From: Patescibacteria group bacterium
GTDB lineage: Bacteria; Patescibacteriota; Patescibacteriia; JACRDY01
Length of the DNA: 64,000 nt
Assembly: GCA_041650515.1 (NCBI GenBank)
Contig: JBAZLA010000001.1
Span: 221,866-285,865 of the forward strand
Reading direction: 5' to 3'
Notes under the pieces: model-generated
What the model was told of the DNA's origin: nothing
What the model saw: only the letters and a program-made list of their open reading frames with translations
Databases searched by the model: none
Made by a program: the position numbers and the translations under genes
Shown: in pieces, positions 12,794 through 55,205 of the stretch
Layout of the letters: every line of letters starts with the position of its first letter
Position numbering within the stretch: position 1 is the stretch's first letter

Positions 12794-12877
12794 GCCCAGG
12801 TGGTGAAACTGGTATACACGAGGGACTTAAAATCCCTTGCCCTTACGGGCGTGAGGGTTCGATTCCCTCCCTGGGCA
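12794..12877 (+). tRNA. tRNA-Leu (anticodon TAA), long variable arm, no encoded CCA
   Basis: Acceptor GCCCAGG/CCTGGGC; anticodon stem AGGGA/TCCCT with loop CTTAAAA; variable stem-loop GCCCTTACGGGC; T-arm GAGGG-TTCGATT-CCCTC. Confidence 0.85.
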
Positions 12878-13075
12878 TTTGAAATTTAGGCAAGCTGGGA
12901 GTAACGCCGACTTAGTTAGTCAAGGGTTCCCACCCTACGGGTGGTCCTCCGAAGGGGGAGATTCCCTCCCTGGGCATTTGAAATTTAGGCAAGCTGGGAG
13001 TAACGCCGACTTAGTTAGTCAAGGGTTCCCACCCTACGGGTGGTCCCCCGAAGGTGGAGATTCCCTCCCTGGGCA
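12878..13075. repeat. Two tandem 99-bp direct repeats, each ending with the 17-nt 3' end of tRNA-Leu (GATTCCCTCCCTGGGCA)
   Basis: Unit 1 is 12878-12976 and unit 2 is 12977-13075; they differ at 2 positions. The 17-mer also ends the tRNA itself at 12861-12877. The 67-aa track ORF here is a repeat artefact. Confidence 0.9.
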
Positions 13076-20812: not shown

Positions 20813-22129
20813 ATGTTGGAGGTAACTTTACTAATCATTTTTCTTTTGCTCTTTGGCTGGTTGAGCTGGCATAATCTACAGCGGGGACTATTTTTGGTTA
20901 TTGTTTTATTGCCGGTTTATTTGGTTCGTTTCCACTTAGGTCCGGTGCCGGTAACTTTATTGGAGTCAATGATCTGGATTTTATTTATCAACTGGTTTTT
21001 AAAATCACTGTTGCATATTCACCTTTGGCCCAGAAGCAAATTTATTGGCGCCGCTTTGGTCATTTTGTTTATTTCGTTTCTGGCGATATTTGTTTCATCT
21101 GACCTGCGGGCCGCCGCCGGGCTTTGGAAAGCCTACTTTTTGGCGCCGTTTTTATTTTTGGTAGTTTTTTCTGGTTTGGTTAAGAAGTCAGAACATATCC
21201 GGGAAGTGATTTTGGCTTTGGGTATCTCGGCTTTACTGGTTTCGATAATGGCAATAATCCAAAAATTAGCCGGTGGTTATTTAGTGCCGACTGCTTATTG
21301 GCTTTTAGGTGAAGGTGAAAGAGTAACTAGTTTTTATCCTTATCCTAACGCAGTGGGATTGTTTTTAGCGCCGATAGTTATATTGTATGTAGGTTTAGTG
21401 GTCAGTCGCTGGTGGCTGGTGGCTAATAAAAAAGGCTGGTCTTTGTTTTTTTCTATGTCGGTTATTATTACCGGTGTGCTGGCAATTATTTTAGCTAAAT
21501 CAGATGGGGCGCTGGTTGGTCTAGTTGCTGGTTTGGCGGTTTTGGGGCTGTTTTTTAAGAAAAGTCGTTGGTGGGTGGCTGGTTTGGCGATTTTGGGTGG
21601 GGTAGCTTTTCTAGCTAATTTAGTACCACAGTCGATCGTAGATACACTTTTATTTCGCGATTGGTCGGGCAAGATACGATTGTTAATGTGGCGAGAAACT
21701 TGGCAACTAATCCGGGATCACTGGTTCTTGGGCGTTGGTTTAGCGGGTTATCAAACAGCATTAGCATCTTATCACCAGGCTAAGGAGATTGAGATTTTTA
21801 TGTATCCGCATAATTTTATCTTTAACTTTTGGGTGGAGCTGGGTTTAGCTGGTTTATTGACTTTCCTTTATATTATTGGTAAGTTCTTTCGGCTGGGAGT
21901 GGCAGTCTTAAAGTCGAAAGCCTGCCCCGAGCCCTTCGGCTTCGCTCAGGGCTGGCTCCGCCGGGAGGTCAAAAATTTTAGAGTTGTTGGTGCAGCATTA
22001 TTAGCGGCGTTGGTGGTAATTTTAGTTCACGGCTTGGTGGACGTTCCGTATTTTAAGAATGATTTAGCGATATTGTGGTGGACTATTTTTGGTCTAATGA
22101 GCAGCCTTTATAATTTAAAAAATGTCTAG
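20813..22129 (+). CDS. O-antigen ligase/polymerase family (Wzy_C) membrane protein
   Basis: 438 aa multi-TM; Wzy_C-like motif YPHNFIFNFWVELGLAGL. Contains a GC-rich in-frame segment at 21915-21972. Confidence 0.65.
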   Translation: MLEVTLLIIFLLLFGWLSWHNLQRGLFLVIVLLPVYLVRFHLGPVPVTLLESMIWILFINWFLKSLLHIHLWPRSKFIGAALVILFISFLAIFVSSDLRAAAGLWKAYFLAPFLFLVVFSGLVKKSEHIREVILALGISALLVSIMAIIQKLAGGYLVPTAYWLLGEGERVTSFYPYPNAVGLFLAPIVILYVGLVVSRWWLVANKKGWSLFFSMSVIITGVLAIILAKSDGALVGLVAGLAVLGLFFKKSRWWVAGLAILGGVAFLANLVPQSIVDTLLFRDWSGKIRLLMWRETWQLIRDHWFLGVGLAGYQTALASYHQAKEIEIFMYPHNFIFNFWVELGLAGLLTFLYIIGKFFRLGVAVLKSKACPEPFGFAQGWLRREVKNFRVVGAALLAALVVILVHGLVDVPYFKNDLAILWWTIFGLMSSLYNLKNV

Positions 22130-39406: not shown

Positions 39407-39766
39407 ATGAACAAAATTATTAAAGTATCGACCTTAGTTTTCCTTTTGGCCCTGTTAGTTGTCCCACATTTTGCTGGTGCCATCGACTTGGGCTTGGGTT
39501 ATGCCACGGCCACTGGTTTGACCAGTACGGATATTCGCGTAACCGTTTCTCGGATTATTAACGTCGCCCTAGGTCTTTTGGGTGTTATCGCAGTGGTGAT
39601 TATTTTAGTTGGCGGCTTCAAGTGGATGACGGCTGGTGGTAATGAAGAAAAAGTTACCGAAGCTAAAAAATTGATTGCGGCTGGTGTTATTGGTTTAGCA
39701 ATTATCTTAACTGCTTATGCCATCGCTGCCTTCGTGATCAACTCCTTGCTCAAGGCCGTACAATAG
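39407..39766 (+). CDS. TrbC/VirB2-like pilin-like family protein, paralog 3
   Basis: 119 aa; C-terminal LGVIAVVIILVGGFKWMTAGGNEEKVTEAKKLIAAGVIGLAIILTAYAIAAFV. Confidence 0.75.
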   Translation: MNKIIKVSTLVFLLALLVVPHFAGAIDLGLGYATATGLTSTDIRVTVSRIINVALGLLGVIAVVIILVGGFKWMTAGGNEEKVTEAKKLIAAGVIGLAIILTAYAIAAFVINSLLKAVQ

Positions 39767-39822
39767 TTAGTTTGAGTAATCATTGAAGTGTTTAATGCCT
39801 CAGCTGGGTAATTAAATTTTTG

Positions 39823-39937
39823 GGGGCCCAGCCCCTTTCTTACTCACGATGATCATAGTTTCGCCTAATAGGATAATTTGGCGCTAGCTGTAGGTAATAT
39901 TAACTACCCGTGGTTGAGAAAGGGGCGGGCCCCCCTA
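39823..39937. repeat. GC-rich ~30-bp imperfect inverted repeat with 55-bp spacer between pilin-like genes 3 and 4
   Basis: TTTTGGGGGCCCAGCCCCTTTCTTACTCACG … CGTGGTTGAGAAAGGGGCGGGCCCCCCTAAA; about 27 of 31 arm positions are complementary. Confidence 0.7.
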
Positions 39938-39948
39938 AATAAGCATTT

Positions 39949-40353
39949 ATGAATCGGAAAAATATTAATAAAGTGTTGTTTCTTGCGTTGGTTGGTATTT
40001 TGGTTTTGCCAGTGTTATGTCTAGCAGCGACTCAACCCGGTACGGCTGATTTTGGCTTAACATCAACAGCGAGCCAGGCTTATGGCACTAAGCCAGCGCA
40101 GACTGATCCGACGGTGATTACTGGCACCATCATTGGCGTGATTCTTTCTTCATTGGGTATTATTTTTATGATCCAGGTTATTTTGGCTGGCATCAAATGG
40201 CTGACCGCTCAAGGTAATGAAGAGAAAATCACTAGCGCTCGCAAGAGCTTGATTCATTCTATCATTGGTTTGGTTATTGTTCTGTCGGCCTATACTCTAG
40301 TCTACTTTGTGATGGGGCAGATACTTTTTCCAGCTATTGGTATCAAGAAATAA
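39949..40353 (+). CDS. TrbC/VirB2-like pilin-like family protein, paralog 4
   Basis: 134 aa; C-terminal LGIIFMIQVILAGIKWLTAQGNEEKITSARKSLIHSIIGLVIVLSAYTLVYFV. Confidence 0.75.
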   Translation: MNRKNINKVLFLALVGILVLPVLCLAATQPGTADFGLTSTASQAYGTKPAQTDPTVITGTIIGVILSSLGIIFMIQVILAGIKWLTAQGNEEKITSARKSLIHSIIGLVIVLSAYTLVYFVMGQILFPAIGIKK

Positions 40354-40366
40354 TTTTGTATAATAC

Positions 40367-40777
40367 ATGAAAGTTTTTTCGAACAAAATACTGATAATCA
40401 TAGTCACCTGGTTTCTTATAATTTTTGCTGTTCCAGCCGTGGCTACTGAGGTGCCGCCAACCTTATTAAATGCCCCCGAACAAGCCGGTGGTCTAGCTGT
40501 TAAGGCCGGTTATCCCGAGAAACCGCGGGCACCAGAAGAAGTGGTCGGCCGGCTGATTTCTTATGCGATGGGCGCTTTGGGCGTTGTTTTCTTTGTCCTG
40601 ATGGTTTATGGTGGTTGGCTGTGGCTAACAGCTAGCGGCAATGAAGAACAAATTACTAAAGCCAAGAAACTAATTATCGAAGCAGTTATTGGTCTAGCGA
40701 TTATTTTTGCCGCTTATGCCATCACCTACTTTGTGGTTAGTAAAGCTCTAAGTAGCATTACGCCCGAGACAGAGTAG
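40367..40777 (+). CDS. TrbC/VirB2-like pilin-like family protein, paralog 5
   Basis: 136 aa; C-terminal LGVVFFVLMVYGGWLWLTASGNEEQITKAKKLIIEAVIGLAIIFAAYAITYFV. Confidence 0.75.
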   Translation: MKVFSNKILIIIVTWFLIIFAVPAVATEVPPTLLNAPEQAGGLAVKAGYPEKPRAPEEVVGRLISYAMGALGVVFFVLMVYGGWLWLTASGNEEQITKAKKLIIEAVIGLAIIFAAYAITYFVVSKALSSITPETE

Positions 40778-40784
40778 TAATATT

Positions 40785-41243
40785 GTGATATTGATTATGG
40801 CTAATATTTTTAAAAAAATCTATTTTCTAGCTCTTGTATTTTTATTACTCCTACCCTTGGTGGGCGTTTTGGCCGGTGATAAGGATGAGTGGAAACCCGG
40901 TAAGCTAACCAATATTACCAGTGAGCTGGAGCGAACTGGTGGTGAACAAGGTATGGGTGTGGATGTTGAAAATTTGAGCAAAGACGAGGCGCTGTATAAA
41001 ATTATTGGTAAGTGGGTTAATTGGGTAACTTCTTTTTTGGGTGTAGTGTTTACTTTATTAATAATCTATGGCGGCTGGTTGTGGTTTTCGGCTAATGGTA
41101 ATGAAGAAAAAATTACCCAAGCTAAAAAAATTATTATTAATTCAGTGATTGCCCTGGCCATAGTGCTGTTTGCTTGGATAATTACATCGACCGTATTGTA
41201 TTATACAGCTAGTGCTTCAGTGACTTCCGTAAGTGGACAATAA
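40785..41243 (+). CDS. TrbC/VirB2-like pilin-like family protein, paralog 6
   Basis: 152 aa; C-terminal LGVVFTLLIIYGGWLWFSANGNEEKITQAKKIIINSVIALAIVLFAWIIT. Confidence 0.75.
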   Translation: MILIMANIFKKIYFLALVFLLLLPLVGVLAGDKDEWKPGKLTNITSELERTGGEQGMGVDVENLSKDEALYKIIGKWVNWVTSFLGVVFTLLIIYGGWLWFSANGNEEKITQAKKIIINSVIALAIVLFAWIITSTVLYYTASASVTSVSGQ

Positions 41244-41248
41244 TTTAT

Positions 41249-41734
41249 ATGATATATGTAACACAATATGGTTTTTTGAAAATTATCTCAATACTATTTT
41301 TAGTATTGTTTTTGTTTAATAGTTTGTTAACGCCGGCTCTAGCTGTTGAGAACGCTTTGTTGGATATTGAGAATATGGCAAAAACTGGTGCCCAAGTGGC
41401 GGGGGAAGGTGGTTATTATACTGGCGATGACCCGGCGGTTGGTGCTAAAGTTTGGGTAGAGAGTACTAGTTATATTATTAGAATAATTATAACCTTTGTT
41501 GGTGTTTTATTTTTTGTTTTGATGATCTATGGCGGGGTTTTATGGATGACGGCTGGTGGCAATGAAGAACAGGTTAAAAAAGCCAGAAGTATATTAATCC
41601 AAGCATTGGTTGGTATAGTGATTGTTTTTGCTGCCTATGCCGTTACTGTCCTAGTATTTTATGTCCTTGGCAGTGAAACCTCTGGTGTTTATAATGTTGG
41701 TGAGATGCCGACAGATACACCTGAAGTTGATTAG
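41249..41734 (+). CDS. TrbC/VirB2-like pilin-like family protein, paralog 7
   Basis: 161 aa; C-terminal VGVLFFVLMIYGGVLWMTAGGNEEQVKKARSILIQALVGIVIVFAAYAVTVLVF. Confidence 0.75.
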   Translation: MIYVTQYGFLKIISILFLVLFLFNSLLTPALAVENALLDIENMAKTGAQVAGEGGYYTGDDPAVGAKVWVESTSYIIRIIITFVGVLFFVLMIYGGVLWMTAGGNEEQVKKARSILIQALVGIVIVFAAYAVTVLVFYVLGSETSGVYNVGEMPTDTPEVD

Positions 41735-41800
41735 CGGTTGGGACCTAATATTCTGGTAAATTATTAGTTTAAAAATAGTAAGAGGGTTTTTAGCTAGTTT

Positions 41801-42244
41801 ATGTCTATAAAATACAGTTATAAAATTTGTCTTCTGACCTTGTTAGCTATGATGTTAATTTCGCCATTGATTGGCTGTCTAGCGGGGGAAGAGGTTGACC
41901 TTAATGCAACGGTAGTTGATAGTTTACGTAATTCCGCTGGTGTTAAGGGTGCTGGTTATAACACGGAGGCAACAGAGGAAGGAACGAATGGAAATATTAT
42001 AGTTATCTACCTTGGTAGAATAATCAAATACGCCTTGACTTTTTTGGGTGTAATTTTCTTTCTTTTTATGATTTATGGCGGTATCCGCTGGATGGTTGCT
42101 CAGGGTAATGAGGAACAGGTGACTGAGGCAAAAAAAATGATTAAAAGTAGTGTTATTGGTTTGGTTATTATTCTATCTGCCGGAATTGTCGCCTGGGTTG
42201 TTTTTGAATATTTATTTAAGGCGACCACTGGTCAATCCAGTTAA
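41801..42244 (+). CDS. TrbC/VirB2-like pilin-like family protein, paralog 8
   Basis: 147 aa; C-terminal LGVIFFLFMIYGGIRWMVAQGNEEQVTEAKKMIKSSVIGLVIILSAGIVAWVVF. Confidence 0.75.
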   Translation: MSIKYSYKICLLTLLAMMLISPLIGCLAGEEVDLNATVVDSLRNSAGVKGAGYNTEATEEGTNGNIIVIYLGRIIKYALTFLGVIFFLFMIYGGIRWMVAQGNEEQVTEAKKMIKSSVIGLVIILSAGIVAWVVFEYLFKATTGQSS

Positions 42245-42258
42245 GTTTATCTAAATTT

Positions 42259-42735
42259 GTGTTTATGTTGATCGAGACAAAAAAAATTAAATTTTTATTC
42301 TCATTTATTTTGTTGGTATTTTGTTTATTACCGTCATTATCTGTGATGGCTGTAGAGCAACCTCATCAGACTGCTACAGACTGGCATCGTGATTTTATAA
42401 CTGCTAGTGGTTTTGCTATACCCGGTACGACCGAGGGTGCTAATCTAGAAAGTGGAATCACCAATATTATCGCGCTTATTTTGTCAGTTGTTTTATCGAC
42501 CTTGGGCGCAATCTTTTTGATTCTAGTTCTTTATGCTGGTATTCTGTGGATGACCGCTGGTGGCAACCAAGAGCAGGTGACTAAGGCTAAGAAGCTGTTA
42601 ATTAATGCTACCATTGGTTTAACGATTGTTTTGTCGGCTTATGCTATTACCTATATTGTGATGGCCTGGCTGGGTAATGCCATTGGTTATGATACTGGCG
42701 ACGGCTTTACGGCTCCGCCAGCCGGCTCTCTATAA
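42259..42735 (+). CDS. TrbC/VirB2-like pilin-like family protein, paralog 9
   Basis: 158 aa; C-terminal LGAIFLILVLYAGILWMTAGGNQEQVTKAKKLLINATIGLTIVLSAYAITYIVM. Confidence 0.75.
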   Translation: MFMLIETKKIKFLFSFILLVFCLLPSLSVMAVEQPHQTATDWHRDFITASGFAIPGTTEGANLESGITNIIALILSVVLSTLGAIFLILVLYAGILWMTAGGNQEQVTKAKKLLINATIGLTIVLSAYAITYIVMAWLGNAIGYDTGDGFTAPPAGSL

Positions 42736-42765
42736 ATCAAGTTAACTCATTGTCTGATATAAAGT

Positions 42766-43194
42766 ATGTATAAACGAATCACTATTTTTATCCTGGGGTT
42801 GGTTTTATTATCTAATATGCTGGGCGTTGGATTGGCGGCTGCTGCTGATGGTGAAGACCCGACAATTATGGGCACGCTGGGCCCGATTGCCACCCAGGCG
42901 GGCTATAGCGAGGATACGCAAGAGATGAGTGTGTTTATCATTGTGGCTAATGTTTTGTCTATTCTTTTTACTACTCTGGGCGTCATCTTTATGCTTATTG
43001 TGCTCTATGCTGGTTTTCGCTGGATGACGGCTGGTGGTAATGAAGAAAAGGTTACCGAAGCTAAAAAACTACTGATTAACGCGACAATCGGCTTAGCCAT
43101 TGTTTTATTGGCTCTGAGTATTACCTATTTTGTTGGCGGCGCCCTAGGGCCAGCGATTGGCGAAGAGTATAATCCCGCTCAAGGTTTCTTTTAA
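42766..43194 (+). CDS. TrbC/VirB2-like pilin-like family protein, paralog 10
   Basis: 142 aa; C-terminal LGVIFMLIVLYAGFRWMTAGGNEEKVTEAKKLLINATIGLAIVLLALSITYFV. Confidence 0.75.
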   Translation: MYKRITIFILGLVLLSNMLGVGLAAAADGEDPTIMGTLGPIATQAGYSEDTQEMSVFIIVANVLSILFTTLGVIFMLIVLYAGFRWMTAGGNEEKVTEAKKLLINATIGLAIVLLALSITYFVGGALGPAIGEEYNPAQGFF

Positions 43195-43211
43195 ACTTAA
43201 ATATTTGCTTT

Positions 43212-43661
43212 ATGGCTAAAAAGATTTTCTTTTCGATAATTTTGTTGTTTACTCTATCGCTATTAGTAGCTCCGGCTTTGGTTTTTGCTGAAAAAGATGA
43301 CCTTGGCGTACCCTGGGAAGAAGGTGAAGCCACGGTTTGGGATCGAATGAGATTTGGCTTACAGCCGACTGAGAAGATCGCCTATGGTATTGAAGGCGAG
43401 GTCAGAATACCGCTACTGCTAGATACCGTAATGTATTTGGTGCAGGTATTTTTGACTACCCTGGGTGTTATTTTTGTGATTATTGTGGTCTATGCTGGTT
43501 TTCGTTGGATGACCGCTGGCGGCAACCAGGAGCAAGTGACTGAGGCTCGTAAACTATTGATCAACGCCACGATTGGTCTGGCAATTGTCATTATGTCTTT
43601 ATCTATTACCTATTTTATCGTTTACGCCCTATTGTATAGTTCTAGAGGCACCAAGAATTAA
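43212..43661 (+). CDS. TrbC/VirB2-like pilin-like family protein, paralog 11
   Basis: 149 aa; C-terminal LGVIFVIIVVYAGFRWMTAGGNQEQVTEARKLLINATIGLAIVIMSLSITYFIV. Confidence 0.75.
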   Translation: MAKKIFFSIILLFTLSLLVAPALVFAEKDDLGVPWEEGEATVWDRMRFGLQPTEKIAYGIEGEVRIPLLLDTVMYLVQVFLTTLGVIFVIIVVYAGFRWMTAGGNQEQVTEARKLLINATIGLAIVIMSLSITYFIVYALLYSSRGTKN

Positions 43662-43999: not shown

Positions 44000-44106
44000 A
44001 GTTTAGTTCGCAGTCCGTAGTCCACAGTCCCCCTCGACGAGACCGGCCCTGAGTTTAGCCGAAAGGCTCGGGGCAGGCATAGTAGAGGAACGTTGAACCG
44101 CCAAGG

Positions 44107-47967: not shown

Positions 47968-48128
47968 TAGACGTTGGTGGTGAACAAGCACTGTTGGTAG
48001 TGCCGTAATTGCAAGGCCGTAAAATTCCTCATCCTCTCCTGGGTAATTTATGCAAAGGAGTTATAAATTATGAAGTTGGTAGTTATAGATTGTTTGACTT
48101 TCGGCTTTATAATCTTATAATTTTTACT

Positions 48129-49928
48129 ATGGATCACAAACAAAAAACCCAAAAAGGGGCCAAGATTGACCACAAATTTTTAACTTCGCCAGCTTTAACA
48201 ATTGGCGATCGGCGGAGTTTTAATCTAGCGACTAAGGCTCTAGCTAACGCCGAGAAGAATTCTCGTGAAAAACTTAGAGTTATTCCTCTGGGCGGTATGG
48301 AAGAAGTCGGTCGTAATATGATGGTTTTGGAATATAATGACGACATTATTATTATTGACATGGGACTGCAGTTTCCTGAGGAAGATATGCCGGGGATTGA
48401 CTATATCATCCCTAATATCAGCTACTTGCGTGATAAGGTCAATAAAATTAGGGGAGTAATTATTACTCACGGTCATTACGATCATATTGGCGCGGTGCCT
48501 CATTTGATTGGTCAGTTGGGCAACCCAGTAATCTATACTGGGGCTTTAACGGCGGGTATCTTGAGAAAACGTCAAGAAGATTATCGTGGCGCGCCTAAAT
48601 TAAACCTAGCACAGATTGATGAGCGTTCCAAAATTAAACTGGGTCGGTCATTTCGGATAGAATTTTTTCGGGTCAATCATAATATTCCGGATAGTTTTGG
48701 TGTAGTGATCAAAACGCCGATTGGTACGATAGTGCATACTGGCGATTTTAAATTTGATGAAAATCCGGTTCATGATAAGCCGATTGATTTTAACCGGCTT
48801 AAAACTATCGCTAGAGATAAGATCTTGTTATTGATGTCGGATAGCACTAACGCCGAACATCCTGGCCACCAGCTTTCCGAAAGCCAGGTGGGGGTTGAGC
48901 TCTCGACTATATTAGCTGAGGCCAAGGGTCGGATTATTGCTGGTACCTTTGCTTCTAATCTATCGCGCGTCCAACTTTTGGTTGCCTTAGCCGAAGAGCA
49001 CGGCCGAAAAGTTTTAATTGAGGGTCGTAGTTTAAATGATAACTTAGAAATCGTTAGAGATTTGGGGTATACCAAAATAAAAAAGAATACGATTGTCAGC
49101 TGGCACGAAGCTAAAGATTTGCCCGATAATAAATTATTGATTATTTGTACTGGGGCCCAAGGTGAAAAAAATGCGGTTTTAATGCGCTTAGCCAACATGG
49201 AACATAAATATTTAAAACTTAAGAAGGGTGATACGATCATTTTTTCTTCTTCGGTTATTCCTGGTAATGAGCGAACGGTCCAGAGTCTTAAAGACACATT
49301 GTATCGTCACGGCGCTAAGGTTATTCATTATCAAATGATGGACATTCATGCTGGTGGCCATGCTAAACAGGAAGATCTAAAAAAACTGATCAATATCTTC
49401 CGTCCTAAGTTTTTTATGCCGATTGAAGCCAATTATTACATGTTGGTAATTCATGGCGAGGTGGCCCAACAGGCAGGAATCCCCGAGAAAAGTATTTTGA
49501 TCCCTAATAATGGCCAGATAGTAGAGATAACTAAAAATGGCGCTAAATTAAGTAGCCAGCAGGTACCCAGTGATTATGTTTTTGTGGATGGTTTGGGCGT
49601 GGGTGATATTTCGGAAATTGTTTTGCGCGACCGGCGAGTGATGGCTGAAGATGGCATGCTGGTAGTGATCGTGACGATTCGCCAAAAAACTGGCGAATTA
49701 GTGCAGAACCCCGATCTGATCTCGCGTGGTTTTATTTATATGAAGGAAAACAAGAATTTAGTTGAAGAAACCCGTAATAAAGTTAAGGTTTTACTCAAAG
49801 ATAAAGACCATCACTCACCAGCTTTTGAGAATTATCTTAAAAACAAGATCCGCAATGAGATTGGCGATTTTTTATGGAAGAAGACTAATCGTCGGCCAAT
49901 GATACTGCCGGTGCTGATTGAAGTCTAA
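48129..49928 (+). CDS. rnj: Ribonuclease J (beta-CASP metallo-beta-lactamase RNase)
   Basis: Start moved to MDHKQKTQKG (48129). MBL motif ITHGHYDHIGAVP; beta-CASP and C-terminal domains; about 600 aa. Confidence 0.9.
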   Translation: MDHKQKTQKGAKIDHKFLTSPALTIGDRRSFNLATKALANAEKNSREKLRVIPLGGMEEVGRNMMVLEYNDDIIIIDMGLQFPEEDMPGIDYIIPNISYLRDKVNKIRGVIITHGHYDHIGAVPHLIGQLGNPVIYTGALTAGILRKRQEDYRGAPKLNLAQIDERSKIKLGRSFRIEFFRVNHNIPDSFGVVIKTPIGTIVHTGDFKFDENPVHDKPIDFNRLKTIARDKILLLMSDSTNAEHPGHQLSESQVGVELSTILAEAKGRIIAGTFASNLSRVQLLVALAEEHGRKVLIEGRSLNDNLEIVRDLGYTKIKKNTIVSWHEAKDLPDNKLLIICTGAQGEKNAVLMRLANMEHKYLKLKKGDTIIFSSSVIPGNERTVQSLKDTLYRHGAKVIHYQMMDIHAGGHAKQEDLKKLINIFRPKFFMPIEANYYMLVIHGEVAQQAGIPEKSILIPNNGQIVEITKNGAKLSSQQVPSDYVFVDGLGVGDISEIVLRDRRVMAEDGMLVVIVTIRQKTGELVQNPDLISRGFIYMKENKNLVEETRNKVKVLLKDKDHHSPAFENYLKNKIRNEIGDFLWKKTNRRPMILPVLIEV

Positions 49929-50012
49929 TTAAGATAACAGGACGATAGGACGCTAGGACGGTAGGTAAATACAAATACCCGGTGGTCATATCGTCATAGT
50001 GTTCTAAATTAT

Positions 50013-50783
50013 ATGGAAATAACTATTTTAGGTTCAGGAAGCTATCAGCCAGAGCTTAGTCGGCACTCGGCTGGCTATTTGGTTCGAGCAGGCAAAAAAA
50101 ATCTAGTTTTTGATTTTGGTCGGGGAGCGGTTGACCAGCTGATGAAAGTTGGTGTTAATTATTATGATATCGACGCTATTTTTATCACTCATTTGCATTC
50201 TGACCATTGCTCTGACTTGTTAGCTGTTTTGCATATTCTACTTATTGAGCCAGCTTTCTTGTCTTTTAGAAAAAAGAAACTAGTTGTTTATGGTCCGGTA
50301 GGGTTTAATAAGGTAATGGCTAAGTTAATGGTGATATTTAATTTAACTAAGTATCGGCCACAGTATAAGATTGTTTTTAAAGAGATAAAAGATGGTCAGA
50401 GTGCTAGGATCGGCAGTTGCCAGATTAGGGGTTATAAGGTTAAACACTCGCGGACCTGGAATTGTTTAGCTTATCGGATTAGCGCCAATAAAAAAGTGTT
50501 GACCTATTCTGGTGATTCGGAGCAATGCCCGGGTTTATTAAAGGCTGCCCGAGGAGCGGATTTGGCAATTTTAGAAGCTAGCTGGCCAGAGAAATTTATT
50601 GCGGGCGGTCATATGAGCGCTAGCCAAGCAGCGGCTTTGGCTCAAAAAGCTGGAGTCAAGAGATTAGTTTTAAGCCACATGCATTCTTTTTATTTTAGAA
50701 AATATAATCCGCTGGCTGAAGCAAAAAAGAATTATCGTGATCAAGTAGTGGTTGCTAGAGATTTGATGGTAATTGATGTTTGA
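50013..50783 (+). CDS. MBL-fold metallo-hydrolase (RNase Z/ElaC-like), paralog A
   Basis: 256 aa; HxHxDH motif (ITHLHSDHC); paralogous to 53176-53952. Confidence 0.7.
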   Translation: MEITILGSGSYQPELSRHSAGYLVRAGKKNLVFDFGRGAVDQLMKVGVNYYDIDAIFITHLHSDHCSDLLAVLHILLIEPAFLSFRKKKLVVYGPVGFNKVMAKLMVIFNLTKYRPQYKIVFKEIKDGQSARIGSCQIRGYKVKHSRTWNCLAYRISANKKVLTYSGDSEQCPGLLKAARGADLAILEASWPEKFIAGGHMSASQAAALAQKAGVKRLVLSHMHSFYFRKYNPLAEAKKNYRDQVVVARDLMVIDV

Positions 50784-50825
50784 TAGTTGGGTATATTAGG
50801 ACCTAATTTTAAGACTAAAGTTATT

Positions 50826-50848
50826 ATCCCCGGATAGGGGATTTTATT
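50826..50848 (+). terminator. Rho-independent terminator (ATCCCC-GGATA-GGGGAT followed by TTT)
   Basis: Perfect 6-bp stem followed by TTTTATT after the MBL gene. Confidence 0.55.
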
Positions 50849-50849
50849 A

Positions 50850-51290
50850 TTGACAAAGAAGGTAATAAGTGTTAAGGTTAAAAATCATTTAGTGTTTTTT
50901 TTGGATCAAAAACAGGAGGTGTCTGGGATGACTACCAGGAAAGTGATTACGATCCATGCGCGCGAGCATGGCGGAACCCTGATTTTCCGGGTCTGGAACG
51001 GCCTCAAAGAGGCCTACGAGACCAATGGTTTGCCGGCGGCTGGGGTTTTCAAGTGGTTGATGGTTCAATGTATGGTTGAAAATATTCAACCTGCATCCGT
51101 CATCGATCTGCGAGACCTGGGGTTGGCTGACCTGACGCAGAAGATTACGGAGCTGTATGATCTGTGCGATGGGTTCGCCAAGCGGGCGCTCGGCATCGCT
51201 GAGCGGACCGGTGATTCGGCCGACGAGCAGGCTGACCTGCTCGATGAGGAAACCTGGCTGGACGGCCAGCCGGTGGTCGCGGCATTCTGA
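50850..51290 (+). CDS. Hypothetical protein, GC-rich (start probably MTTRKVITIH at 50928)
   Basis: 146 aa ORF; sequence after 50928 is about 60% GC, unlike flanks; GGAGG RBS before 50928; terminator at 51325. Confidence 0.5.
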   Translation: MTKKVISVKVKNHLVFFLDQKQEVSGMTTRKVITIHAREHGGTLIFRVWNGLKEAYETNGLPAAGVFKWLMVQCMVENIQPASVIDLRDLGLADLTQKITELYDLCDGFAKRALGIAERTGDSADEQADLLDEETWLDGQPVVAAF

Positions 51291-51324
51291 CGCCGCTTCC
51301 CCGTCGTCCGATTCTAGGAGGTTG

Positions 51325-51347
51325 GGCGTGCTTGCACGCCTTTTTTT
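51325..51347 (+). terminator. Rho-independent terminator (GGCGTG-CTTG-CACGCC followed by TTTTTTT)
   Basis: Perfect stem and T7 run. Confidence 0.7.
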
Positions 51348-51358
51348 ATATCAGTTAT

Positions 51359-51390
51359 CTGCTATTTGGTATCTGTTATTTGTTATTTGA
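51359..51390. repeat. Left arm of the imperfect inverted repeat flanking the four-helix-bundle gene
   Basis: CTGCTATTTGGTATCTGTTATTTGTTATTTGA is the reverse complement (with mismatches) of 51886-51920. Confidence 0.7.
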
Positions 51391-51397
51391 TTTGGTT

Positions 51398-51760
51398 TCA
51401 GCGGCGGAGGTTAAGATTAGTTCCTTTAATTAAGCCATTAATTAATTCTGGCAGCGAATTTAATTTATCAGTTATAGAATTATATTCTTTTAGACTAATT
51501 AATTCTCGGATTTTAGATTTTTCTATAAAGTCTTTGGTCTCAGCGACAGAACCACGGGCGTAGATATAAAATAATATCTTGTCCTTTTTATAATATCGGA
51601 ACCAACCTTCAGCTATGTTGCTCGATATAGAATCAGCCGACCTAATTAGCTGCTTGCCGATAGTGTCTTTAGCTAAGTAATCCCAGCGGCTGACGATATT
51701 CCAAATATCATTAGCCAACTCAAAACCCAAGATATAGGCATAATGTTCTTCTAATTTCAT
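51398..51760 (-). CDS. Four-helix-bundle protein (TIGR02436, 23S rRNA intervening-sequence protein family; Avd-like)
   Basis: 120 aa; LIRSADSISSNIAEGWFRYYKKDKILFYIYARGSVAETKDFIEK matches the family signature. Confidence 0.75.
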   Translation of the reverse strand: MKLEEHYAYILGFELANDIWNIVSRWDYLAKDTIGKQLIRSADSISSNIAEGWFRYYKKDKILFYIYARGSVAETKDFIEKSKIRELISLKEYNSITDKLNSLPELINGLIKGTNLNLRR

Positions 51761-51885
51761 ATATTTTAAGTGTGTATTATTGATTATTAAATAAATCTAA
51801 AATTTTATACTCAGCTTGAATAAGCGGTAAAATAATGATATTATAAAGGCATTAGTAAGTCAGCAAATAATCAAAATTCAGGTAT

Positions 51886-51920
51886 CAAATAGCAAATACC
51901 AAATAGCAAATACCAAATAA
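51886..51920. repeat. Right arm of the inverted repeat (tandem AAATAGCAAATACC units)
   Basis: CAAATAGCAAATACCAAATAGCAAATACCAAATAA; ends 3 nt before the trpS ATG. Confidence 0.7.
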
Positions 51921-51923
51921 TCT

Positions 51924-52907
51924 ATGGCTAAAAAACCAATTATTCTATCCGGTATCCAACCCAGTGGCGAGCTGCATATTGGCAATTATTTAGGTTCGCT
52001 CAAAAATTTTGTTGAGCTGCAGAATAGTGGGGATTATGACTGCTATTTTTTTGTGGCTGATCTGCACGCCATGACCGAGAATTATAATCCGTTGGAGTTG
52101 GCTAAAAAGACGCGCGGCGTAGTTCTTGACTATTTAGCGGCTGGTTTAGATCCGAAAAAATCAACTATTTTTATCCAATCGCAAGTGGTTGGCCATACTG
52201 AGTTGGCTTGGATTTTTAACACACTGTCACCAATGGGCGAGCTAGAGCGAATGACTCAGTATAAAGATAAGGCCGCGCGGCAGAAAGAGAATGTTAATGT
52301 TGGTTTATTTGTTTATCCGGTCTTACAAGCGGCGGATATTTTAATGTATCACGGTGAGCTGGTGCCAGTTGGTTATGATCAGTTACAGCACGTGGAGTTA
52401 ACCCGGAGCGAGGCGCGTTGGTTTAATAATAAATACGGCCAGACTTTTATTGAACCAAAACCATTATTAACTAAAACGCCTAAGATAATGAGTTTATTAG
52501 ATCCAGAAAAAAAAATGTCCAAGAGTTTGGGCCCTGGGCACTATATTGGTATTAATGAATCGCCGGTGGAGATTAAACAAAAATTAAAACGAGCCGTATC
52601 TGACGAGGGTCATGGCAATTCAGCTGGCGGTAAAAATTTGTTGTTGCTTTTGGAAAATTTTTCGCCCAAAGAAATAGTCAGTCACTTTCAGACTCAGCAA
52701 AAACAGGGTCAAATAAAATTCGGCGAGCTAAAAGAGCGCCTGGCTGATGATATTGCTAATTATTTTGCACCCTTTAGGGACAAGCGTCAGGAGCTAGAAA
52801 AAGATAAAAAACAGGTTGATTTGGTTATTAGCGGGGGAAATAAGAAAGCTCAGGTGGTAGCTGATAAAACCATTATTGAGGTGAAGAAGAAGGTTGGACT
52901 AATATAG
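51924..52907 (+). CDS. trpS: Tryptophan--tRNA ligase
   Basis: 327 aa; class I HIGH motif (GELHIGNYLG) and KMSKS; TrpS-like length. Confidence 0.9.
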   Translation: MAKKPIILSGIQPSGELHIGNYLGSLKNFVELQNSGDYDCYFFVADLHAMTENYNPLELAKKTRGVVLDYLAAGLDPKKSTIFIQSQVVGHTELAWIFNTLSPMGELERMTQYKDKAARQKENVNVGLFVYPVLQAADILMYHGELVPVGYDQLQHVELTRSEARWFNNKYGQTFIEPKPLLTKTPKIMSLLDPEKKMSKSLGPGHYIGINESPVEIKQKLKRAVSDEGHGNSAGGKNLLLLLENFSPKEIVSHFQTQQKQGQIKFGELKERLADDIANYFAPFRDKRQELEKDKKQVDLVISGGNKKAQVVADKTIIEVKKKVGLI

Positions 52908-53175: not shown

Positions 53176-53952
53176 ATGAAGATTACTCTTTTAGGTACGG
53201 GGGCGCCTTATCCAGATCCACAAAGAAATGCGCCTGGGTTTTTATTAGAACACGATGAAGTGCCTTATTTAATCGACTGTGGTGGTGGGGTGTGCCACCA
53301 GCTAGCTAAGATTGGTTGCCCGGGAGCCAAATTAGATAATATTTTTATTAGTCACATTCACATTGATCACTGTGTCGAGTTTCCAGCTTTGGTTTTTAGT
53401 TCGTATTTAACTGGTAAAGAAGGCAGCTTCCATCTATTTGGTCCGGCCGGAGTCAAACATTGGGTCGAGAGCACTTTCAACACTACTTATGACTTCGCGC
53501 CGCAGATGATGCGCGATTTACGAAATAAGGAGATTAGCGTTATTACTCAAGAAGTTGAATCAGGTAAAATTTTTGAACAAGATGGTTTGGTAGTTGAGGC
53601 CGAACCAGTGGAACATGGTTTTCCCACTTTAGCTTATAAATTTACTGCCAATGGTAAAAGCGTAGTTTTTAGCGGTGATACCCAGCCCTGCGCTGGTTTG
53701 ACTAAAATTGCCCAAGGCGCGGATTTACTAATTATTGAGTGTTCTTTCCCAGAAGACATGGGCATTAAGCCAAATCATTTAATCCCATCGCAGGTTGGCC
53801 GGATTGCTCAAGCGGCTAAGGCTAAAAAAGTTTTGTTAGTTCATCTTTTTCCTTTTTGCCACGGCAAAGAAGAAGCGATATTAGCGGAAATTAAAAAACA
53901 TTATTCTGGACCAGTCGAGATTGGACAGGATTTGCAAGTGATGGAAGTTTAA
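53176..53952 (+). CDS. MBL-fold metallo-hydrolase (RNase Z/ElaC-like), paralog B
   Basis: 258 aa; ISHIHIDHC motif; collinear similarity to 50013-50783. Confidence 0.7.
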   Translation: MKITLLGTGAPYPDPQRNAPGFLLEHDEVPYLIDCGGGVCHQLAKIGCPGAKLDNIFISHIHIDHCVEFPALVFSSYLTGKEGSFHLFGPAGVKHWVESTFNTTYDFAPQMMRDLRNKEISVITQEVESGKIFEQDGLVVEAEPVEHGFPTLAYKFTANGKSVVFSGDTQPCAGLTKIAQGADLLIIECSFPEDMGIKPNHLIPSQVGRIAQAAKAKKVLLVHLFPFCHGKEEAILAEIKKHYSGPVEIGQDLQVMEV

Positions 53953-54732: not shown

Positions 54733-54737
54733 AGTAT

Positions 54738-55205
54738 CTAAGTAGGGTAGTAAGCCGAATTCAGTCACGTAAAGGCTCGCTGGCGCTCGCCCACGCGACA
54801 AGTCCCAGCTTAGAATTATTGGACTTGTCCCGTAAACGAGCGTAGCGAGTTCTACGGGATGGTTATCTATCTAGGTCCGATGTTGCCACCGGACTCAAGC
54901 GAGCAACTAAATTGCTCTTGCACCAGGGAGGGTTTACCATCACATCCCGGTCGCCCGGGAGGAAGAAAAGTAGCTACTTTAAGAAATCATATGATTTTCT
55001 CAAGAAACACCTTTTCTCTTTTCACCTTTGGCCCGCCAAATTGGTGGGTTATCATTGTCTCTGTGACACTTTCCCTAAGATTACTCTTGGTCGCTGTTAG
55101 CGACTCCCATTAACTCCGATAAATCGGAGGGTGTTCGGACTTTCCTCCCCCATGATCCGTCAAATTGGCGGATTTTACGGGGGCAACCACCTTGCCTACT
55201 TAGAT
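54738..55205 (-). ncRNA. rnpB: RNase P RNA (bacterial type A)
   Basis: Minus strand carries GGGGGAGGAAAGTCCGAAC (P4 5' strand), …GACTGAATTCGGCTTAC (P4 3' strand), CACAGAGACAA (ACAGARA), and GGTAAACCCTCCCTGGTGCAAG. The P1 ends CTAAGTAGG and CCTACTTAG are complementary. Confidence 0.8.

Follow-up and report, generated by a model that had tools for sequence, protein, structure and literature searches.

A 64,000-nt stretch of the genome of a Patescibacteria group bacterium (assembly GCA_041650515.1, contig JBAZLA010000001.1, positions 221,866 to 285,865 of the forward strand; hereafter, the window) raises the question of what kind of element lies immediately upstream of its trpS gene, where a short minus-strand gene for a four-helix-bundle (4HB) protein is enclosed by complementary borders. 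The original prediction, made from the sequence alone, described an inverted-repeat-flanked cassette and considered it to be either a mobile cassette, akin to an intervening sequence (IVS) or to a MITE (miniature inverted-repeat transposable element), or the remnant of a diversity-generating retroelement (DGR). What it overlooked is that the borders are opposed arrays of a short tandem unit, an architecture that is the rule across the whole family of such genes. With moderate confidence, we favor the reading that the locus is an intact copy of a widespread cassette in which a 4HB gene sits between opposed arrays, that this cassette is the non-rRNA (intergenic or operon) counterpart of the 23S rRNA IVSs that bear an open reading frame (ORF), and that its arrays are cis-acting, stem-forming and probably bound by the gene product.

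The features of the locus are collected in Table 1. As predicted, the 120-aa gene carries the ...SADSISSNIAEGW...ARGSVAE... signature on the minus strand, and the cassette is set between a putative rho-independent terminator and the trpS start codon, with the terminator-like hairpin constituting its left boundary and lying outside it. The whole cassette, both arrays included, spans 573 bp and is inverted relative to its neighbors, its gene being antisense to both. The left array lies 8 nt past the stop codon of the 4HB gene, and the right array ends 3 nt from the trpS ATG. The bracketing arms are complementary, as had been noted, with the inverted-repeat finder returning 37-nt arms at 51355-51391 and 51884-51920 that are 84% complementary (78% when extended to 45 nt), but they do not constitute a base-by-base inverted repeat: they are opposed arrays of one and the same unit. 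Similarly, the tandem repetition described for the right arm was recovered, but it is not restricted to that arm, since the left arm is a heptad array as well. Read by hand on the plus strand, the left-array units are ATATCAG, TTATCTG, CTATTTG, GTATCTG, TTATTTG and TTATTTG, and those of the right array are CAGGTAT, CAAATAG, CAAATAC, CAAATAG, CAAATAC and CAAATAA; Tandem Repeats Finder (TRF) also describes the right array with a period of 14 (2.4 copies at 100%).

Table 1. Features of the cassette and its immediate neighbors, in window coordinates.
Feature	Coordinates	Strand	Evidence
Terminator-like hairpin and T run of the upstream GC-rich gene	51324-51347	+	Stem 51324-51341: 7 pairs, 5 of them G-C
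Left array, six NTATYTG heptads	51348-51389	+	Sequence; TRF 51354-51389, period 7, 5.1 copies
4HB gene, 120 aa, PF05635/TIGR02436	51398-51760	-	Profiles, AlphaFold2 model, Foldseek
AT-rich spacer, 118 nt, ~25% G+C, promoter-like sites both ways	51761-51878		Composition, consensus matches
Right array, six NTATYTG heptads	51879-51920	-	Sequence; TRF 51886-51919, period 7, 4.9 copies
trpS (ATG at 51924)	51924-52907	+	TIGR00233, E 3.3e-89

This arrangement is unique in the window, where it forms both the sole closely spaced inverted repeat of at least 35 nt and the sole opposed-array pair. Searches of the window with a 20-mer from the arms, allowing up to three mismatches, yielded five matches against 0.03 expected, all of them within the two arms, and no further copies of the arms were found in the window outside them. 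The window contains no rRNA gene, in agreement with the original prediction, and no Rfam family was found over the arrays, either at gathering thresholds in the window and 20 loci or at E-values up to 1 in the cassette.

The product of the enclosed gene was compared with protein families and solved structures. Its scores of 78.9 bits for PF05635 (E 3.9e-22, cut-off 33.8) and 84 bits for TIGR02436 (E 8e-24, cut-off 24) are well above the respective cut-offs, and all family-invariant residues are retained, with the RxxxSxxxNxxE motif, as defined in PMC3936711, corresponding to R40-S44-N48-E51 in ...LIRSADSISSNIAEG.... The AlphaFold2 monomer model has a mean pLDDT (predicted local distance difference test) of 96.8 and places four helices at residues 7-23, 28-53, 58-84 and 90-117. 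Foldseek ranked XCC0516 (2gsc) first, with a template modeling (TM) score of 0.89, followed by BT_0352 (2rld) with 0.78 and by the Bordetella phage Avd protein (4dwl, 8ube) with ~0.75 at 5% identity, and a profile of 40 homologs run against solved structures matched XCC0516 with an E-value of 1.2e-9 and BT_0352 with 3.4e-6. These results, from profiles and from structure prediction alike, bear out the assignment of the protein to the IVS/Avd superfamily of 4HB proteins. Because XCC0516 and BT_0352 rank above Avd and its 5% identity, the protein is, as judged from its sequence and modeled fold, a typical non-DGR member of the PF05635/TIGR02436 family. It has no match in PADLOC or PHROGs and no relatives in IMG/VR viral contigs, and no second 4HB gene is present in the window, where tblastn returned two weak hits, one within the gene for a 630-aa membrane protein and the other within a glycosyltransferase gene.

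The arrays of the window turned out to be an instance of a far more general arrangement. A scan with the family alignment, taking one genome per species, yielded 80 loci from Bacteroidota, Ignavibacteriota, Patescibacteria, Omnitrophota, Planctomycetota and others, 71 of them with full flanks. In most loci, comparison of the upstream flank with the reverse-complemented downstream flank gave scores of 30-116, versus ~14-25 for direct-orientation controls and up to ~30 for shuffled sequences. The arms responsible are tandem arrays of a 7- or 8-nt unit that is common to both sides of a locus and varies among loci. TRF detected arrays of period 7-8 on both sides in 56 of the 71 full-flank loci (124 individual arrays with period 8 and 10 with period 7), and their density reached 3.18 per kb within 300 nt of the gene versus 0.33 per kb elsewhere in the same loci.

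Orientation was assessed with a strict motif, defined as at least three exact units of T..ATKG (period 8) or T.ATKG (period 7). In the 46 kb near the gene, 46 instances were located upstream on the plus strand and 47 downstream on the minus strand, the opposite orientation accounting for a single instance on each side. The remainder of these loci contained 17 instances in 344 kb, and control loci from the candidate phyla radiation (CPR) none in 487 kb. Arrays are thus ~40-fold enriched close to the gene, and nearly all of them share one geometry. Within the Bacteroidota/CPR set, 95 of 112 strict-motif arrays adjoin a 4HB gene. The unit follows the profile T-T-w-a-A-T-K-G, in which positions 2, 5, 6 and 8 hardly vary, and is repeated with a median of 4.0 copies upstream and 4.7 downstream (range, 2-29 units). 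Since the arrays are opposed, a G/T-rich array comes first and a C/A-rich array second on either strand.

The geometry of these cassettes is compact. The array and the ATG are a median of 25 nt apart and the stop codon and the array a median of 6 nt, 20 arrays overlapping the end of the ORF, and the median cassette length is 483 bp. Among the 47 loci with neighbors callable by a simple ORF rule, 38 have both neighbors in the orientation of the 4HB gene, the upstream stop codon being separated from the cassette by a median of 3.5 nt and the downstream start codon by a median of 6 nt. Only one other cassette shares with that of the window a 4HB gene antisense to both neighbors; even so, the window array is 3 nt from the next start codon. 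A separate observation concerns a sub-lineage with unit TAATWGRT (L003, L165 and L171; e.g., L165 367-1025) that lies between tRNA-Arg(TCT) and tRNA-His(GTG) and is co-oriented with them, so that the cassette is probably part of a tRNA precursor transcript. As this is the only sub-lineage located between tRNAs, a general linkage of cassettes to tRNA genes was rejected.

The architecture recurs in at least five bacterial phyla; it was seen around family members from Bacteroidota, Patescibacteria, Xanthomonadales, Cyanobacteriota and Desulfobacterales, and every lineage has units of its own. In Xanthomonas, homologs of XCC0516 lie between accB and accC: GGGAATC, GGGAGTG, GAGAATC and GGGAATC heptads begin 6 nt past the accB stop codon, and inverted heptads of the CCATTCC/CGATTCT type end at the accC ATG. 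The XCC0516-type gene splits the Xanthomonas accB-accC operon (L173 2424-2872 and L176 2484-2932). Its ORF is probably longer than the 109-aa call, with a GTG within the upstream GGGAATC array as the probable start codon. In the Desulfobacterales, TCATTYG and its complement flank a 4HB gene located between two response-regulator genes. In Cylindrospermum PCC 7417, TCATTRG is repeated 20 times after the upstream stop codon, and heptads of the CCAATGA type extend as far as the obg ATG; we take TCATTRG to be a rotation of the STRR2 (short tandemly repeated repetitive sequence) unit TTGGTCA of Mazel 1990.

Cyanobacterial cassettes use TCATTRG or CTnTTAG units, and some of them are located between cas6 and cas4. 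Opposed heptads surround the 4HB gene in Anabaena sp. 90 and Calothrix plasmids, the Anabaena copy lying between these two cas genes. This placement of the 4HB gene had been reported earlier without reference to repeats (PMC3936711), much as the description of the X. campestris GGGAATC family, with ~186 sites of which 70 occur as inverted pairs, leaves the XCC0516-type gene unmentioned (PMC4692102). Two of the cyanobacterial loci (L184 838-1700 and L186 950-1660) are type I-D CRISPR loci with very long arrays around the 4HB gene between cas6 and cas4; the heptad array of Anabaena sp. 90 comprises ~45 units, and in L184 the downstream array falls within the annotated 5' end of cas4, whose start codon may be miscalled.

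Opposed arrays also occur in the absence of an ORF. Such pairs, with short loops, were found in three Bacteroidota loci (L049, L078 and L082), and 10 of them were present in the 487 kb of CPR control loci. ORF-less arrays of GTAGTCN and CTACTGA stop 11 nt short of the trpS start codon in L091 (3899-3983), in the same position as the window cassette, and in L111 (2930-3003) ORF-less CAAGATA and TTGTATC arrays follow the RNase J terminator.

To compare the region upstream of trpS, we gathered 80 metagenomic loci with related trpS genes. In many of them (L098, L100, L126, L127, L130 and L131), RNase J is the gene immediately before trpS, at a distance of 17-65 nt; in the window, the two genes are separated by ~2 kb containing a metallo-beta-lactamase (MBL)-fold gene, a GC-rich 120-aa ORF and the cassette. 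The 4HB gene is next to trpS in none of the 80 loci, so that the presence-or-absence comparison called for by the original prediction finds the cassette absent from all of them. Many relatives have RNase J and trpS side by side, which makes the cassette a lineage-specific insertion at an otherwise conserved junction. An empty site at the nucleotide level was not found among these loci: in L094, which carries the closest relative of the window trpS (79% protein identity), the gap is filled by a different gene, an unrelated 268-aa gene on the minus strand.

The closest homolog of the 4HB protein itself (P0002, 70% identity, in locus L163) lies between unrelated genes and is bordered by the same unusual heptads (TTATTTG, CTATTAG, TTATTTG and CTATTTG upstream; CAAATAG, CAAATAA, CAAACAG and CAAATAA downstream). 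In the DNA alignment of the two loci, similarity covers the ORF and the arrays and stops at the outer edges of the arrays, the spacer that separates the 5' array from the ATG being ~80 nt longer in the window copy. Since L163 shares the heptads in another context and similarity ends at the array edges, gene and arrays travel together, as a single unit found at different places. Together, the adjacency of RNase J and trpS in relatives, the lack of the 4HB gene at their trpS loci and the different context of L163 support the view of the cassette as a mobile unit.

The junction between RNase J and trpS is in itself an insertion hotspot (window 48009-51923; L094, L098, L100, L126, L127, L130 and L131), with three extra genes in the window. 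One of these, the ORF at 50928-51290 (+), has a G+C content of 55-63% in a region of ~40% G+C and is followed by a terminator of its own at 51324-51341. Searches of Pfam, NCBIfam and PADLOC gave no match, nor did tblastn against phage and plasmid collections, and PHROGs gave a marginal one (phrog_133, E 0.0095); the ORF looks like a separate foreign insertion sharing the gap with the cassette. Paralogous MBL-fold genes (Lactamase_B_2, with weak similarity to the anti-Pycsar protein Apyc1) flank trpS at 50013-50783 and 53176-53952 (+).

Under the reading that we favor, the arrays would be the cis-acting part of the element. A G/T-rich 5' array and a C/A-rich 3' array carried on one transcript could pair in any register, and the resulting stem of ~30-45 bp would loop out the 4HB ORF, join the flanking host sequences and offer a substrate for RNase III, as experiments have demonstrated for 23S IVSs; in Coxiella, the 428-nt IVS has a 28-bp terminal stem that is cut by RNase III (PMC4990558). 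Such looping-out would make insertion tolerable in rRNA, in tRNA operons and in mRNA operons. Binding of the arrays by a protein is also suggested by the near invariance of the unit core (ATTG or ATTTG) across phyla, and the likeliest binder would be the putatively pentameric 4HB product, with one unit per protomer, by analogy with the DGR ribonucleoprotein, in which each of the five Avd protomers uses the same residues to bind a single RNA stem-loop (bioRxiv 10.1101/2023.10.23.563531). By the same analogy, a run of about five units would fit the five-protomer picture.

Pairing of the arrays is physically expected, and the minimum-free-energy structure of the window cassette has its arms paired on both strands (z = -3.6 and -5.2), but this pairing lacks the support of covariation. 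Several results weigh against the proposed mechanism or limit its reach. Arm mismatches show no bias toward G.U wobble in either transcript (53 vs 62, p = 0.46), and unit order is not mirrored between arms (mean z = -0.13 in unit-order permutations over 31 loci), the window arms having 28 observed matches versus 28.8 with shuffled unit order. Since shuffling the units does not lower the match, the complementarity of the arms is fully explained by their shared unit, and, with both the wobble and the unit-order tests null, nothing beyond that unit positively indicates selection for pairing. On the protein tree, units of the ATGG and ATTG types form polyphyletic groups, and the two types cannot be told apart by any alignment column; because unit variants do not co-vary with the protein sequence, the idea of a protein reading the unit base by base gains no support. 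In the window, the promoter-like sites are all located in the stretch separating the gene from the right array, and the terminator precedes the left array; given these positions, the 4HB mRNA and the trpS mRNA may each lack at least one of the arrays. The window unit, NTATYTG, is moreover a variant that fails the strict Bacteroidota motif, and the 80 family loci share ancestry, so that counts over them are not counts of independent events. Exceptions to the architecture were also observed: no arrays were found around the Pseudanabaena PCC 7367 plasmid copy (L172), those of Urbifossiella are doubtful, and one locus (L186; P. galeata) has its arrays in direct orientation, plus an extra inverted array.

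The conserved core of the unit and the fixed geometry of the arrays do point to sequence-specific recognition. Two other accounts of the unit were considered and set aside. The Bacteroidetes -7 promoter box, TAnnTTTG, requires a T where the unit has an invariant A, and telomere-like ends have a G/T-rich strand polarity opposite to that of the arrays.

The alternative that best survives, although we consider it unlikely, is that the opposed arrays are host-made, STRR-like hairpins independent of the 4HB gene, which would have been inserted or retained in their loops as cargo and whose product would be functionally unrelated to them. Hairpins of this kind without an ORF do exist in the same genomes and in CPR relatives, as illustrated by the pair upstream of trpS in L091, and the ~186 GGGAATC sites and 70 inverted pairs of Xanthomonas far exceed the number of 4HB genes (PMC4692102). 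The units, furthermore, look genome-specific, do not co-vary with the protein and are not mirrored in order. This account is difficult to reconcile, however, with the L163 homolog, whose unusual heptads recur in another context within a similarity that stops at the array edges, so that the arrays move with the gene, or with the large majority of strict-motif arrays that adjoin a 4HB gene in the Bacteroidota/CPR set and the conservation of the unit core across phyla.

A MITE-like, non-autonomous transposon, in which a transposase encoded elsewhere would bind the arrays as subterminal sites, with the 4HB gene carried along as a passenger, appears improbable. The 4HB protein is the sole conserved protein of these cassettes, and their arms are arrays of variable length (2-29 units) rather than defined or mirrored termini, even though the inverted geometry of repeated motifs at both ends and the different insertion sites of related cassettes would suit such a transposon. 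Scattered insertions in CPR rRNA genes and inside cas operons have also been published (PMC11270868, PMC3936711). At the window locus, however, there is no transposase in the neighborhood, no target-site duplication is recognizable at the outer edges and the 64 kb contain no second copy, which speaks against a classical MITE.

In the window, the cassette probably supplies trpS with a promoter, located in the spacer, and with a CA-rich leader that lacks a Shine-Dalgarno sequence and corresponds to the right array, there being no room for a Shine-Dalgarno sequence because this array ends so close to the trpS ATG. The candidate sites are consensus matches only: one is directed toward trpS on the plus strand (51816-51844, TTGAAT-17-TATTAT with TG) and three toward the 4HB gene on the minus strand (51863-51835, 51831-51802 and 51790-51763). 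We give little credence, however, to the view that the heptads before the trpS ATG are first and foremost a regulatory 5' leader, with their likeness to the other arm being secondary. The 3-nt distance to the ATG, with no Shine-Dalgarno room, agrees with such a role, 27 of the 38 co-oriented loci have a downstream array that ends no more than 15 nt short of the following start codon, and in Beggiatoaceae TAACTGA direct repeats end 1 nt before start codons (MacGregor 2015, PMC4679880). Yet arrays flank the 4HB gene whatever its neighbor, none of the 80 related trpS genes has this array, and the opposed left array faces a terminator, with no gene to regulate.

It is very improbable that the locus derives from a DGR whose avd gene was orphaned when the reverse transcriptase and the template and variable repeats (TR/VR) were lost, even though the 4HB protein shares its fold superfamily with Avd and DGRs are common in CPR bacteria, because there is no reverse transcriptase, as the original prediction had noted (none among the genes with Pfam hits within 10 kb on either side, which include glycosyltransferases, MBL-fold proteins, RNase J, SecG and pilins, and no YxDD-containing ORF of more than 250 codons in the 64 kb), and no TR/VR-like pair in the window (its direct repeats of at least 35 nt are pilin paralogs, a tRNA-linked duplication and short coding repeats), while the protein, at 5% identity to Avd, is closer in fold to non-DGR proteins and lacks IMG/VR relatives, and the array architecture is common to dozens of loci without a DGR.

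The reading of the locus as an intact copy of a widespread cassette admits a broader formulation, which we advance only tentatively, as a possibility. PF05635 4HB proteins may be the missing trans-acting partners of the STRR-type families of heptamer and octamer repeats, including the cyanobacterial STRRs, the Xanthomonas GGGAATC family, the Bacteroidota TTnnATTG units and the CPR heptads. A pentamer would bind about five units, one per protomer, its gene would reside inside one pair of its own arrays, and ORF-less arrays would be non-autonomous relatives. This would amount to a system resembling that of the REP-associated tyrosine transposases (RAYTs) and their REPINs, pairs of repetitive extragenic palindromic (REP) sequences, built on a non-enzymatic barrel protein, with 23S rRNA IVSs and STRR insertions in RNase P RNA as special cases.

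We did not find this cassette type described in the literature searched, and the association of gene and arrays is its interesting part: no link of PF05635, S23p or 4HB genes to tandem repeats was found in full-text literature, most subscription journals being outside the search. The function of non-DGR 23S IVS/S23p proteins has been open since 1993, and STRRs have been known since 1990. If gene and arrays are one system, these two puzzles, the role of the proteins and the reason for which many bacteria have families of 7-8-nt tandem repeats (STRRs, GGGAATC and TAACTGA), would be joined and both would become directly testable. The cassettes lie inside essential, tRNA and cas operons and may set the expression of the next gene, here trpS, and, in addition, they cause breaks in assemblies and spurious CRISPR-like or repeat calls.

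Further repeats and RNAs were observed in the window away from the cassette. A 99-nt tandem duplication at 12794-13075 (2.2 copies, 96-98% identical) starts inside the 3' end of tRNA-Leu(TAA) and is reminiscent of the scar left by an integrated element at its attachment site. An inverted repeat of 49 nt, GC-rich (21920-21968 and 44030-44078), 78% complementary and with arms 22 kb apart, stands in an AT-rich genome, and eight diverged direct repeats at 39581-43609, ~460-550 nt apart with one gap of 999 nt, correspond to an array of paralogs resembling type IV secretion system pilins (PF18895 in the matching contig L001). Bacterial RNase P RNA is encoded at 54735-55202 (-) with 163 bits and, at 468 nt versus the 367 positions of the model, carries ~100 nt extra. 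TRF found no array in this gene; STRR repeats reportedly occur inside cyanobacterial RNase P RNA genes, going by the title of a 1997 paper by Vioque.

Among known systems, the ORF-bearing 23S rRNA IVSs (Leptospira, Coxiella, Brucella and the Xanthomonas-type S23p ORFs) are closest to the cassette in anatomy. They share with it the PF05635 family, an ORF of ~120 aa, complementary borders able to form a stem of 28-45 bp, a similar size (428-444 nt in Coxiella, 573 bp in the window and a family median of 483 bp) and a sporadic distribution that suggests horizontal transfer. The proposal of an IVS-like cassette therefore holds for its stem-forming border, its ~120-aa ORF and its ~570 bp, but not for a location in rRNA: the window cassette lies between protein-coding genes and antisense to them. 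Its borders, moreover, are 7-nt tandem arrays instead of a unique inverted repeat, and, of the two, it is the IVSs for which excision by RNase III is known.

At the protein level, XCC0516 and BT_0352, both homopentameric, are the closest solved structures and share the RxxxSxxxNxxE motif with the window protein, from which they differ in sequence (~24-26% identity). The homologs of XCC0516 also resemble the window gene in lying in a cassette with opposed heptad arrays, there between accB and accC and with a different unit, GGGAATC. Avd has in common with the 4HB protein a barrel-forming four-helix-bundle fold (TM 0.75) and offers a model for how a tandemly repeated ligand may be read, with its RNA stem-loop bound by five protomers through equivalent residues; the window differs from Avd systems in the 5% identity of its protein and in having no reverse transcriptase, TR or VR, and tandem arrays are unreported around avd. 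The resemblance to RAYT/REPIN systems is one of logic only, in that a gene resides inside a repeat pair while ORF-less repeats occur elsewhere (in Xanthomonas, cyanobacteria and Bacteroidota). RAYTs are HUH tyrosine transposases with known catalysis, whereas the 4HB protein has no known catalytic site and its repeats are tandem arrays, not REP hairpins.

As for the repeats, the arrays of the window are tandem, of 7-nt units, intergenic, opposed and hairpin-capable. They resemble in this the STRRs of heterocystous cyanobacteria, the GGGAATC family of Xanthomonas and the TAACTGA repeats of Beggiatoaceae, all of them intergenic 7-nt tandem units that often occur as opposed, hairpin-forming pairs near start codons. 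STRR heptamers form hairpins between operon genes and have been proposed to act in transcript stability or translational coupling (PMC2670836). These families are described as dispersed over the genome, with tens to hundreds of copies; in the window, the unit occurs only at the cassette, as one pair in 64 kb. The papers searched make no link between these families and PF05635 genes. The TCATTRG units of Cylindrospermum and the GGGAATC units of Xanthomonas, however, both of which flank 4HB genes, belong to these very repeat families.

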